From positions 1,993-65,992 of the forward strand of contig JAQBRA010000006.1 in assembly GCA_028286685.1 (NCBI GenBank): a stretch of 64,000 bases of DNA. The letters are read 5' to 3'. Under the pieces are notes generated by a model. The model did no database searches, was not told the DNA's origin, and saw only the letters and a list, made by a program, of their open reading frames with translations. The DNA is from Candidatus Adlerbacteria bacterium (GTDB lineage: Bacteria > Patescibacteriota > Minisyncoccia > Phycocordibacterales > SBAW01). How positions within the stretch are numbered: the stretch's first letter is position 1; every line of letters starts with the position of its first letter. Shown here piece after piece: positions 32,354 to 39,205 of this stretch. The position numbers were made by a program, and so were the translations under genes.

Positions 32354-35300
32354 TTACGAGACGCGGACCTTGTCCTCGGCCACCTGCTCGGCGCTCGGCG
32401 CGTAGCGGTTGACCAATTTCTCCTTCGGAGAGCCCTTGAAGCCCGTACCTGCCGGGATGAGCCGGCCGATGATGACGTTCTCCTTGAGGCCCTCGAGGCG
32501 GTCTACCGAGCCGTACATCGCAGCCTTGATGAGCATGCGGGTCGTGTTCTGGAAGGACGCTGCCGAGAGGAAGGACGCGCGAGAGAGCGAGACATCGAGA
32601 ATGCCCATGACCAGGCCCTCACCCTTCGCAAGCTCCTGCTCTGCCCCATTGAGGGTGGCGTTGACTGCCTGGAGGTCAACCTCGGACATAACGTCGCCGA
32701 CCGAGAGCTCGGAGCCGCCGGAAGCGGAGATCTTAACGCGGCTAAACATCTGACGAATGATGACTTCCAAGTGCTTCACTGAGATGGAAGCGCCCTGGAG
32801 CTCGTAGATCTTGATGACCTCGGCGATCATGTACTCCTGCGTGCGCTCCTTGCCCGCGTACTTGAAGAGCTCCTGGAGGTCTGCAGAGCCGTCGGTAATG
32901 AGCTGACCCTTCGTGATCTTGTCGCCCGCCTTAACGACCGGGACGCGGCGCATCGGAAGCTCGTACTCGATAACCTCGCTGCCCTTCTTGGTCTTCGATT
33001 TATATTCGAGATCCGGGGTCACGACGATGATCTTTTCCTTGCCGTCGTCCTTGACCTCCAGCACTTCGCCGGAAACAGAAGCAACTACGGCCGGAGAGCG
33101 CGGCGCACGGCGCTCGAAGATTTCCTCGACGCGCGGGAGGCCGGAGGTTACGTCGCCGCCCTGGGACGCTGCGCCTCCTGCGTGCTTAACGTTCATGGTG
33201 AGCTGGGTGCCCGGCTCGCCGATTGCCTGCGCGGCAATGGTGCCGACAGCCTCGCCGAGCGCGACCGGCTTCATCGAGCCCAAGTCAGCGCCGTAGCAGT
33301 GGGCGCAGATGCCTGCCTGGGCCTTGCAGCCGATAGGGCTGCGCACGTAGACCGAGGCGAGTCCTGCGTCCTCGATGCGCTTGGCATCGGCCTGGCTCAC
33401 GAAGTGGCCCTTCTTGTACTCCGCCTTGCCGTCGATCTCGACGTCTGCAGCGAGGAAGCGGCCTTCAATGTTCTTAGCGAGGAAGGTGCCGATACCGGAA
33501 GCGGACTCGCGCTTGATGGTAACGCCCTCCTTGGTGCCACACTCTTCCATAGTGACTACGATATCCTGCGCAACATCGAAGAGGCGGCGCGTAAGGTAGC
33601 CTGCCTTGGCGGTTGAAAGCGCCGTAGCTGCAAGACCGGAGCGGGAGCCGTGGGTGGTAATGAAGTACTCGATCGGTGAGAGACCCTCCTTCATGGACTT
33701 GGTAACCGGGAGCTCAAGCGTTTCTCCGGAAGGAGATGCGATGAGGCCCTTCATACCGGCCATCTGGGTGAGCTGGGCCGGGGATCCGCGGGCGCCAGAG
33801 CGGAGCATGTCCTCAACCGAGCCGTTGCGCGGCAGCGATGCAGGAATGAGCTTCTCGACGTCGGACTTGGCATCGTGCCAGATCTCGAGGTTCATGCGGT
33901 AGCGCTCTTCCTCCGAGAGGAGGCCGTCCTGCCAATGGCGCACGACTTCGCCGGACTTGCGCTGGGCCTCATCGATGATGCCCTGCTTCTCTGCCGGGAT
34001 GCGGATGTCGTCCAGGGACCAGGTAATGCCCGACTGCGTTACGTAGCGGAAGCCGAAGGTCTTGACCTTGTCCATGATCTCCGGGATGCGCTCGAGGCCG
34101 TAGCGGTTGATAAGGTCGTTAACGAGCTTAGCGAGGCCCTTCTTGTCGATGCTGTAGTTGATGTAGGGGTAGTCTGACGGGAAGACGGTGTTGAACAGGA
34201 GGCGGCCTACCGTGGTCTCGAAGAGCTGTCCGCCGAACTGGGCGTACTTCTCCTTCTCGCTCGGCAGAACCTTGACCTTTGCCTGGAAGCCTACCTGGCC
34301 GTAGTCGTACGCGAGTATCGCGGCGTTAGGCGATGCAAAGGCGAGGTTCTCGCCCTTCATGCCCTCTACTTCCTTGGTCATCCAGTAGGCGCCCAAGAGA
34401 ATGTCGAGGAGCTTGGAAGCCACAACCGGCTCTCCGTTGCCCGGCTTGAGGATGTTCTTGGAAGCGGCCATGATCTCGCGCGCCTCGGCCTGAGCTTCAG
34501 GCGAGAGCGGCACGTGGACGGCCATCTGGTCTCCGTCGAAGTCGGCGTTGAATGCCGGGCAGACCATCGGGTGGAGCTGTATTGCGTTGCCTTCGATGAG
34601 GATCGGCTGGAAGGCCTGGATACCGAGGCGGTGGAGCGTCGGTGCGCGGTTAAGCAGCACGTACTTGTCGCGGATGACATCTTCGAGGATTGCCCACACC
34701 TCCGGTACGCCTTCGTCGATGAGACGGCCGGCGCCACGGATGTTGTAAGCGAGCTCCTTTTCAAGCAGCTTGCCGATAACGAACGGGCGGAAGAGCTCGA
34801 GCGCCATGTGCTTCGGGAGGCCGCACTGGTTGAGCTTGAGTTCCGGACCCACGACGATAACGGAGCGGCCCGAGTAGTCGACACGCTTGCCCAAGAGGTT
34901 CTGGCGGAAGAGGCCGTGCTTGCCCTTAAGGTTGTCGGACAGGGACTTGAGCGGACGGGTGCGCGCCTGGGTCGTAGCCGAGTATGCAGCACCGCCGTGG
35001 CGGATAGAGTTGTCTACCAGGGCATCGATAGCCTCCTGGAGGATGCGCTTCTCGTTGCGCAAGATGACGTCCGGCGCGTGGATTTCTATAAGTTTCTTGA
35101 GGCGGTTGTTGCGGTTGATGACGCGGCGGTAGAGGTCGTTGACGTCGGAGGTTGCATGGCGACCGCCTTCAAGAGCGACCATGGGGCGCAGGCCAGGAGG
35201 GATAACCGGTATGCGGGTGAGGAACATCCACTCGGGGCGGACTCCGGAGCGGAGCATGCCGCGCACGATAGAGAGGCGCTTGCCCAGCTTCTCGCGCTCA

Positions 35301-39205: not shown

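Follow-up and report, generated by a model that had tools for sequence, protein, structure and literature searches.

The window analysed here, a stretch of 64,000 nucleotides, encodes both large subunits of bacterial RNA polymerase (RNAP) in a single open reading frame. We are highly confident that this ORF is a genuine, evolutionarily fixed rpoB-rpoC fusion of a clade of Paceibacteria (Patescibacteria/CPR) and that it most likely yields one tethered β-β' chain in an ordinary RNAP core. The analysis established the fusion itself and its conservation, how it arose and that it is independent of other fusions.

The fused ORF occupies positions 32354-39205 of the minus strand, with an ATG start, a stop codon at 32354-32356 and 2283 codons for a product with a calculated mass of 253 kDa. 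An earlier note on this DNA had described a single uninterrupted ORF for β plus β' at these positions and of this length, and both coordinates and continuity proved right. The strand was not given in that note; the fused rpoBC ORF lies on the minus strand, and this interval, when translated on the plus strand, is riddled with stops. Two antisense ORFs on the plus strand, at 36134-39232 (1032 amino acids) and 34514-36121 (535 amino acids), were dismissed as shadow ORFs of the GC-rich coding strand. The protein consists of a complete, compact β (RpoB) moiety (amino acids 1-1047, 36065-39205), whose C-terminal end reads ...LRGLALDVELM, and a complete β' (RpoC) moiety (amino acids 1066-2283, 32357-36010), which starts with DFDAVRIRPASPE. 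Pfam placed Rpb2 domains 1, 2, 3, 45, 6 and 7 at amino acids 19-1047 and Rpb1 domains 1-5 at amino acids 1066-2162. The NCBIfam rpoB model NF001616 (PRK00405) matched amino acids 4-1047 over model positions 3-1095 of 1096 with 1432.6 bits (cutoff, 896), TIGR02013 scored 1414.8 bits on the β moiety (cutoff, 801), and the rpoC model TIGR02386 matched amino acids 1070-2258 over model positions 2-1144 of 1147 with 1441.9 bits (cutoff, 963.5). These full-length equivalog matches above cutoff identify the two halves as RpoB, with all Rpb2 Pfam domains, and RpoC, with the NADFDGD catalytic loop and the N-terminal zinc finger. The zinc finger (CxC...CxxC) spans amino acids 1120-1139 (35789-35848, minus strand), and the catalytic Mg-binding loop, NADFDGDQMAVH, spans amino acids 1553-1564 (34514-34549, minus strand). 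The join is in frame, contains neither a stop nor a frameshift and is kept in relatives, as the sequence definition of a natural single-ORF β-β' fusion demands.

Placement of the domain boundaries with RpoB and RpoC HMMs, which the earlier note had proposed, showed that β extends to amino acid 1047 and that β' begins at about amino acid 1066. The linker between them comprises 18 residues (amino acids 1048-1065; 36011-36064, minus strand), and it falls inside the range of about 36005-36085 that had been claimed for the join. All of the quoted strings were also found, namely the N-terminal MREQKHFSRF..., the junction GLALDVELMRNG-SSVAGSRKTPGAEASD-FDAVRI, the zinc finger and the catalytic loop. 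The two moieties are indeed compact, but they measure about 1050 and 1220 amino acids instead of the 1010 and 1270 that had been given.

The linker has two parts. The first, a variable hinge with the sequence NGSSVAGS (amino acids 1049-1056; 36038-36061, minus strand), averaged 2.3 bits of column entropy over 84 clade members, a variability that exceeds that of 99% of all 7-residue windows in the protein; probably it is what is left of the β C-terminal tail or of the intergenic spacer. The second, RKTPGAEAS (amino acids 1057-1065; 36011-36037, minus strand), is conserved as R/K-K-T-P-G-A-E in most of the 84 sequences and is homologous to MNSNYKNPGAETDQFEAI, the native β' N-terminus of the unfused relative P0130. 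RKTPGAEAS is the old β' N-terminal tail, which the ancestral initiator Met directly preceded. A Met at that position is retained in only 2 of the 84 members, the basal P0079 and P0084. Linker Met residues occur in 18 of the 84, at varying positions, with none conserved. Given that the ancestral Met has been lost in 82 members and that no linker Met is conserved, there is no conserved start for separate initiation of β'. Linker length is identical in 60 of the 84 homologues, and that of the window matches the linker of clade member P0004 exactly and is close to that of P0001. A codon alignment of five loci revealed many synonymous substitutions within RKTPGAE and its flanks, which indicates purifying selection on this reading frame across the join.

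In a sequence search of the PDB, β chains aligned up to about amino acids 1047-1054 and β' chains from about amino acids 1052-1065 onward. A search with the junction returned no chain spanning both halves among the best 60 of 154 distinct matched sequences, so that these 60 include no solved template for a natural fusion. Confidence was low (mean pLDDT, 60.5; pTM, 0.44) for an AlphaFold2 model of a 601-residue junction fragment that was built from a 29-sequence alignment.

A survey of related genomes, likewise suggested in the earlier note, returned the same fusion from independent NCBI, JGI, ENA and Logan assemblies, in more than 80 separate clusters at 90% identity. The 84 full-length homologues share 76-94% identity with the window protein, and every one of them is fused. 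An exact look-up of the window protein itself gave no record. The homologues carry the names Candidatus Paceibacterota or Patescibacteria and none at a finer rank, and the databases annotate these proteins merely as "β'" or "β". This main fused-RpoBC clade (P0001-P0084) was monophyletic with a bootstrap of 100/100, and the window protein belongs to it, with a linker of about 19 residues bearing the (R/K)K(T)PGAE motif and with the trmD-rpoBC-dnaG-rpoD synteny also seen in L082 and L085. In a database of 5.8 billion proteins, no separate rpoB or rpoC occurred above about 57% identity among the matches listed. No second, separate rpoB or rpoC was found among close homologues, with the present genome covered over the 64-kb window only.

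Whether relatives are fused or split was decided from stop-to-stop ORFs, given that tblastn alignments bridged the gap in unfused genomes. A GTDB scan with a 200-residue junction query was dominated by universal motifs (FGEMEVWA and others), and the relatives described here are therefore those among the matches listed. The closest unfused ones, at 65-68% identity, were L001 (Candidatus Zambryskiibacteriota), L003, L002 and L006 (Candidatus Nomurabacteria). They share with the window the rpsP-KH-trmD-rpoB-rpoC-dnaG-rpoD synteny, compact subunits (about 1085-1100 and 1210-1250 amino acids, stop to stop) and a β' N-terminal tail of the same type, but differ in having a stop codon and a spacer of 12-85 nt between rpoB and rpoC. 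Across unfused relatives the spacing is 3-85 nt, and in L004, L005 and L008 the rpoB stop is followed by rpoC in frame with no further stop.

Bootstrapped trees and synteny revealed that rpoB and rpoC fused on at least three separate occasions within Paceibacteria. Together with P0088/L081, a second fused clade (P0090-P0101; L007, Candidatus Paceibacterota bacterium SMAG_U14927; and L084) belongs to the same phylum-level group and shares the topology and compact size (2236-2296 amino acids) of the window protein. The linker of this second clade is 9 residues shorter and has no motif in common with that of the window clade, its synteny is yceG-rpoBC-rpsF-ssb-rplK, and unfused species separate the two clades with 100% bootstrap. 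The P0088 lineage differs from the window clade in that it retains the β' initiator Met and in that split siblings exist at more than 90% identity: fused (2282 and 2296 amino acids) and split (1083 plus 1234 amino acids) forms fall in one 90% cluster, and the fused form corresponds to the split form minus the β tail, stop codon and spacer. The P0088 fusion is therefore young. Among 1.84 billion representative proteins, we found at least 22 further fused groups (50%-identity clusters with β and β' in one chain). With at least 22 such groups and at least three events in Paceibacteria, the fusion is recurrent, not rare. The earlier statement that it is documented for only a few lineages thus holds for the searched literature but not for the sequence databases.

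The neighbourhood of the fused gene is also conserved. Upstream, on the same strand, Pfam and synteny identified rpsP (41002-41460), the KH-domain gene khpA (40484-40858) and trmD (39835-40482); directly downstream lies dnaG (30318-32090), followed by rpoD (29061-30296), both assigned with Pfam and both conserved partners of rpoB/rpoC in L001, L002, L003, L006, L081, L082 and L085. A putative sigma-70-like promoter (TTGACA-16 nt-TATACT, 11 of 12 consensus matches) lies upstream of rpoBC at 39483-39510 on the minus strand, and L086 and L082 have kept its hexamers. The 5' leader of about 270 nt (39206-39476, minus strand), conserved at the DNA level among the window, L085 and L086, contains conserved hairpins, one of which, at about 39335-39373, is an attenuator-like stem with a U-run behind it, and has a minimum free energy of -93.3 kcal/mol compared with -75.7 for shuffled sequences (z = -3.7). 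No Rfam family matched the leader; with the whole window examined at the gathering threshold and the leader at an E-value threshold, weak terminator-like sRNA matches at 39542-39580 were the only ones seen. A perfect GC-rich palindromic hairpin at 32300-32331 (minus strand), 23 nt past the rpoBC stop and before dnaG, is a possible terminator or processing site, with no clear U-run on the minus strand.

These observations reveal the route to the fusion. The starting state was a pair of adjacent, co-oriented rpoB and rpoC genes, often in one reading frame, in which a small deletion or loss of the stop codon did away with the rpoB stop and the short spacer and, in the end, with the start codon of rpoC. 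Translation would now run from the β C-terminus through a floppy hinge of about 8 residues and the former β' N-terminal tail into β'. Most likely expressed as one chain of about 253 kDa, the product would have the normal two-lobed RNAP core fold and work with α2 and σ exactly as the split enzyme does, and the covalent tether between the β C-terminus and β' N-terminus would give 1:1 stoichiometry and co-translational assembly.

An assembly or sequencing artefact, in which the assembly had lost a real stop codon or an indel of 1-2 nt that divides rpoB from rpoC, was the concern raised in the earlier note, and such errors are possible in single metagenome-assembly windows. The P0088 cluster, with its fused and split versions beside an A-rich, KKKK-encoding stretch, is a case in which close assemblies do differ in state. 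However, the identical architecture recurs in the more than 80 clusters across different projects and assemblers, the P0049 protein is present in identical form on at least 24 contigs (the longest, 774 kb), the junction combines fixed length with synonymous-only divergence, and the ancestral β' start codon has been lost. We therefore consider an artefact scarcely conceivable here, and for the clade it is effectively already refuted. It is also conceivable that the gene is fused and that the cell nevertheless makes two proteins, by site-specific proteolysis at the hinge or by internal initiation near the junction, for example at Met1047. The hypervariable hinge is probably exposed, and Met1047 (ATG), present in 70 of the 84 members, lies just upstream of it. 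Position 1047 is nevertheless L, V, T or A in the other members, and an internal start there is not conserved because T and A cannot serve as start codons; in addition, no Shine-Dalgarno-like sequence precedes Met1047 (GACGTCGAGCTCATG), the ancestral β' Met has decayed, and the natural Helicobacter fusion reportedly exists as one polypeptide. Production of two proteins thus appears quite improbable, and a single tethered chain remains the preferred reading.

A further question is whether the tether is adaptive instead of neutral. In ultra-small CPR cells with reduced genomes, it might offset the absence of assembly help (such as omega) or secure stoichiometry at very low copy number, and the three or more origins in Paceibacteria, the absence of observed reversions across the clade at 76-94% identity, the nearly constant linker length and the conservation of the RKTPGAE segment are in keeping with this idea. 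Mutational ease predicts recurrence equally well, however, given neighbouring genes in frame with one another at a distance of only 3-85 nt; many close CPR relatives are unfused; and the conservation of RKTPGAE, which is also present in unfused P0130, may reflect a normal role of the β' N-terminal tail. Experimental splitting of the H. pylori fusion reportedly has only mild effects, which suggests that such fusions can be nearly neutral. A selective advantage is accordingly speculative, and we regard an adaptive origin as unlikely. The combined proposition that the tether has been repeatedly selected in ultra-small CPR cells and that no natural single-chain bacterial RNAP core is more compact than the 2283-residue protein is, in our view, similarly doubtful; if true, the tether would make up for a reduced assembly machinery or for a very low copy number of the subunits, and the protein would be a minimal scaffold ready for use in structural and synthetic biology.

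Earlier work took the rpoB-rpoC fusion for a "rare genetic change" suited to marking clades (PMC1557499). In the large, uncultured Paceibacteria clade described here the trait is fixed; it has several origins in the class, with an early stage visible in one lineage, and is therefore a recurrent, easy event. Marker sets that assume separate RpoB and RpoC must accommodate fused proteins. Understanding of how RNAP works is unchanged overall: this is a new lineage with a known architecture.

The searched literature names Helicobacter/Wolinella and Wolbachia as carriers of the fusion and describes it as a "rare genetic event" (PMC7483510, PMC1557499). A literature search for an rpoBC fusion in CPR bacteria found none, and the Paceibacteria fusion is an independent repeat, apparently undescribed so far, of the Helicobacter and Wolbachia events. 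The RpoB-RpoC protein of Helicobacter/Wolinella (NF007172/PRK09603, "subunit beta/beta'"; about 2890 amino acids) has the same topology, with a short in-frame linker in one ORF. The Helicobacter example that we retrieved, the 2891-residue protein of Helicobacter muridarum (L074), lies at 45% identity and branches far from the CPR sequences; its linker is unrelated to that of the window protein, with a spacing of 122 residues compared with 116, and it thus represents an independent origin with no shared fusion ancestry. The window protein scored 2078.8 bits on NF007172, in five fragmented stretches, compared with a cutoff of 5372, and 1978.2 bits on the Wolbachia model NF011417 (PRK14844), compared with a cutoff of 4632. 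With scores so far below both cutoffs and a separate origin, the window protein is not "Helicobacter/Wolbachia-type". The window protein is about 600 residues shorter than the Helicobacter fusion, given that both of its moieties lack lineage-specific insertions, and could be used as a minimal single-chain bacterial RNAP core in expression or cryo-EM work; its trmD-rpoBC-dnaG-rpoD context also differs from that in Helicobacter. The Wolbachia protein is likewise a natural single-chain β-β' fusion, but it differs in phylum, size and linker. A natural β-β' fusion in H. pylori (Zakharova 1998) and an engineered E. coli β-β' fusion that assembles into active RNAP (Severinov 1997) are both cited in PMC1750930. 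The E. coli protein is an artificial construct and, as a fusion, evolutionarily unrelated to the window protein; given that its tether allows assembly and activity, the CPR protein is expected to act as a normal core enzyme, most likely an ordinary RNAP core in which β and β' are covalently tethered.

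The ORF at 32354-39205 lies on the minus strand, where 2283 codons, the first an ATG start, precede the stop; read on the plus strand, this interval is full of stops. The earlier note had the coordinates of this single uninterrupted rpoB-rpoC frame of 2283 aa right, with its orientation now read from right to left. Within the one frame, all Rpb2 (beta) domains were found at aa 19-1047 and Rpb1 (beta') domains 1 to 5 at aa 1066-2162 with Pfam, and the NCBIfam equivalogs for rpoB (PRK00405) and rpoC (TIGR02386) were matched end to end, above their curated cutoffs, at aa 4-1047 and aa 1070-2258, respectively. 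This HMM alignment, which the note had suggested for placing the boundaries, gives two complete moieties of approximately 1050 and 1220 aa, compact as it had stated and slightly off its sizes of 1010 and 1270 aa. The Zn finger and catalytic loop that it had assigned to beta' are present at aa 1120-1139 and, as the NADFDGDQMAVH loop, at aa 1553-1564. By every sequence test the product, with a predicted mass of 253 kDa, is a member of both RpoB and RpoC, and the completeness of both moieties is established at this level. Opposite rpoBC run two very long ORFs, at 34514-36121 (+; 535 aa) and 36134-39232 (+; 1032 aa); as the coding region here is GC-rich (about 60-62%), they are most probably its shadow ORFs rather than genes.

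A homologue search of 5.8 billion proteins yielded over 80 distinct clusters at 90% identity, drawn from NCBI, JGI, ENA and Logan assemblies. Their members are full-length fused proteins of 2270-2299 aa that share 76-94% identity with the window protein and all have both domain sets, so that the survey of relatives proposed earlier did find the same fusion. Where names are given, they are Candidatus Paceibacterota or Patescibacteria group. One fused protein, P0049, is identical on at least 24 contigs of up to 774 kb, and no separate rpoB or rpoC of more than about 57% identity occurs among the matches listed. Codon alignment of the junction in the window and four relatives (L085, L086, L082 and L083) showed repeated synonymous changes within and around the linker (in RKTPGAE, for example, ACC/ACT, CCG/CCT, GGT/GGC, GCA/GCC and GAA/GAG), and the reading frame across the junction is therefore under purifying selection. 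An assembly-collapsed stop between two separate genes is ruled out for the clade by the independent clusters, the P0049 contigs, the conserved linker and fixed spacing, the synonymous junction changes and the lack of close separate genes among those matches. The sequence data confirm the fusion that the note had observed, support its reading of it, and establish it as old and fixed in the window clade (P0001-P0084).

The join reads ...LRGLALDVELM-RNGSSVAGSRKTPGAEAS-DFDAVRIRPASPE..., with the linker at 36011-36064 (-). In nearly all clade members, 116 residues separate GEME in beta from INYRT in beta', and the linker is 19 aa long in 60 of 84. Across these 84 sequences, aa 1049-1056 (NGSSVAGS in the window protein) rank in the top 1% for variability among all 7-residue windows of the protein; conservation of R-K-T-P-G-A-E, at aa 1057-1063, is close to the protein average. 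Beta' of an unfused relative, P0130, begins with MNSNYKNPGAETDQFEAISIKLASPE, in which the PGAE..F(D/E)A motif recurs. The conserved half of the linker is therefore the former beta' N-terminal tail rather than new sequence, and the variable half ahead of it is probably a shortened beta tail or spacer. Only P0079 (...SRMRKSPG...) and P0084 (...PNMKKQPG...), both basal, keep the former initiator Met before (R/K)K; elsewhere in the clade this position has drifted to A, G, S, I or V. Any Met in the linker is found in 18 of 84 sequences, at varying positions; Met1047, just upstream, gives way to L, V, T or A in part of the clade, and no Shine-Dalgarno-like sequence precedes it. A conserved internal start for separate beta' synthesis is no longer present. 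An AlphaFold model of the junction was of low confidence (pLDDT 60.5) and was set aside, and in a junction sequence search no chain among the 60 best PDB matches covers both halves.

We constructed a neighbour-joining tree from concatenated or fused beta and beta' (2148 trimmed columns, 100 bootstrap replicates). Bootstrap support was 100 for the window clade, all of whose members are fused; for its grouping with unfused L001 (Candidatus Zambryskiibacteriota), L002, L003 and L006 (Candidatus Nomurabacteria) and fused P0088; for P0088 as sister to L001; and for a second fused clade (P0090-P0101 and L007). Support for all fused Paceibacteria as one group was 0. Trees of beta or beta' only gave the same values except for P0088 with L001, whose support was 92 in the tree of beta'. 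The order rpsP-khpA(KH)-trmD-rpoB/C-dnaG-rpoD (29061-41460) is common to the window, fused L081, L082, L085 and L086, and unfused L001, L002, L003 and L006; since unfused relatives share it, this arrangement is older than the fusion. The second fused clade has yceG-rpoBC-rpsF-ssb-rplK, and its linker is 9 aa shorter with no motif in common with that of the window clade. Together, the tree, synteny and linker differences put the number of fusion events in Paceibacteria at three or more. In window-type loci the RNAP large-subunit gene is not beside rplKAJL; the primase gene and then that for sigma-70 follow it directly downstream.

Unfused CPR relatives among GTDB genomes have rpoB-rpoC gaps of 3-85 nt, frequently in the same frame. 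In L004, L005 and L008 the rpoB stop is followed by rpoC in frame without a further stop, so that one substitution would fuse the genes. The 90%-identity cluster of P0088 mixes fused proteins (2282 and 2296 aa) with separate beta (1083 aa, KKW14779.1) and beta' (1234 aa, MEK7175782.1). Its fused join, ...LDVELKKKK-MNSNYKNPGAE..., corresponds to the split form minus beta tail, stop and spacer, with the beta' Met retained, and this lineage shows a very young fusion, caught at an early stage. The join in P0088 and in L081, a locus of this type (gene 1302-8150), sits at an A-rich run, and the coexistence of fused and split forms could be real polymorphism or, in some assemblies, homopolymer error.

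The rpoBC gene appears to be expressed as a unit of its own. On the minus strand, a strong terminator-like hairpin closing the trmD unit (39570-39548) is followed by a near-consensus putative promoter, TTGACA-16-TATACT (39510-39483), and a leader of approximately 270 nt within 39206-39570. Both the sequence and the hairpins of the leader are shared by L085 and L086, and in part by L082; the leader folds with a z-score of -3.7 and matched no Rfam family. One hairpin, GGGGAGCG...GCGCCCCC plus a U-run at about 39373-39335, resembles a transcription attenuator and may be analogous to that upstream of E. coli rpoB. Between trmD and the terminator lies a 59-aa ORF (MGQNHEAAEASQVSSDYWVKK...; 39583-39759, minus strand) with AGAGAGGTG upstream; its L085 equivalent is called as a 58-aa gene at 862-1038, and the 96-aa ORF containing it in the same frame (39581-39871) has no Pfam family. 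A GC-rich palindrome with a perfect 14-bp stem, AAGGGCCCGGATTC-nnnn-GAATCCGGGCCCTT (32300-32331), is located 23 nt past the rpoBC stop codon, with a T-run on its plus-strand side only.

G+C is 55-62% throughout the window, which is high for a Patescibacteria genome. Other genes are housekeeping, including class I/II ribonucleotide reductase (16758-19823), HisRS, DnaE (49461-52670), GyrB, SMC and RNase R; a MASE1 hybrid histidine kinase is encoded at 5217-7328. Two long ORFs, alternative gene candidates, overlap on opposite strands within 27581-28978: that at 27581-28867 (+; 428 aa) has no Pfam match, and that at 27845-28978 (-; 377 aa) weakly matches (1.8e-7) the carboxysome-shell carbonic anhydrase catalytic domain.

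The window protein is most likely an ordinary RNAP core with tethered beta and beta', given its complete moieties, the fixed fusion, the lost internal start and two precedents, both as cited in PMC1750930: in E. coli, beta and beta' joined by engineering assemble to active RNAP (Severinov 1997), and in H. pylori the active site naturally lies on one chain (Zakharova 1998). A short flexible hinge would tether the beta C-terminus to the beta' N-terminus, and tethering would entail obligatory 1:1 synthesis and co-translational assembly, the chain presumably being intact in vivo. Selection for such tethering might account for the recurrence of fusion, and mutational ease explains it equally well; the tether may be advantageous or merely tolerated. 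The fusion is not mechanistically surprising; its uses lie in annotating CPR genomes, in the treatment of phylogenomic markers and in offering a compact single-chain RNAP.

When 1.84 billion representatives at 50% identity were scanned without a profile, using an 800-aa junction query, 22 or more of the 150 best-matching ones had GEME...NADFDGD in one chain (747-2859 aa, mostly >2000). Further single-chain beta-beta' proteins occur in metagenomes (P0160-P0292 included), most without annotation. Others, from the search of 5.8 billion proteins, are a Candidatus Desantisbacteria fusion (P0103/P0141; 2530-2534 aa, labelled 'Multifunctional fusion protein' in UniRef) and P0105, a 3132-aa fusion on contigs of 3.5-4.8 Mb; the GTDB genome scan recovered the classical example of Helicobacter muridarum (L074, 2891 aa). 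The earlier view that such fusions occur in only a few lineages holds for the searchable literature, which names only Helicobacteraceae and Wolbachia (PMC7483510; PMC1557499), but not for sequence data, with those 22 or more 50%-identity clusters and the three or more Paceibacteria events. We found no report of a CPR or Patescibacteria rpoBC fusion in that literature, although an earlier description is possible, and the Paceibacteria fusions are present in public databases but unremarked. The window protein scored 2079 bits against the Helicobacter-type family NF007172 (cutoff 5372) and 1978 bits against the Wolbachia-type NF011417 (cutoff 4632) and is a member of neither; its linker is unrelated to theirs and its tree branch lies elsewhere. 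It falls in the architectural class of natural beta-beta' fusions, and represents an independently derived new lineage, in fact several, of this known architecture.
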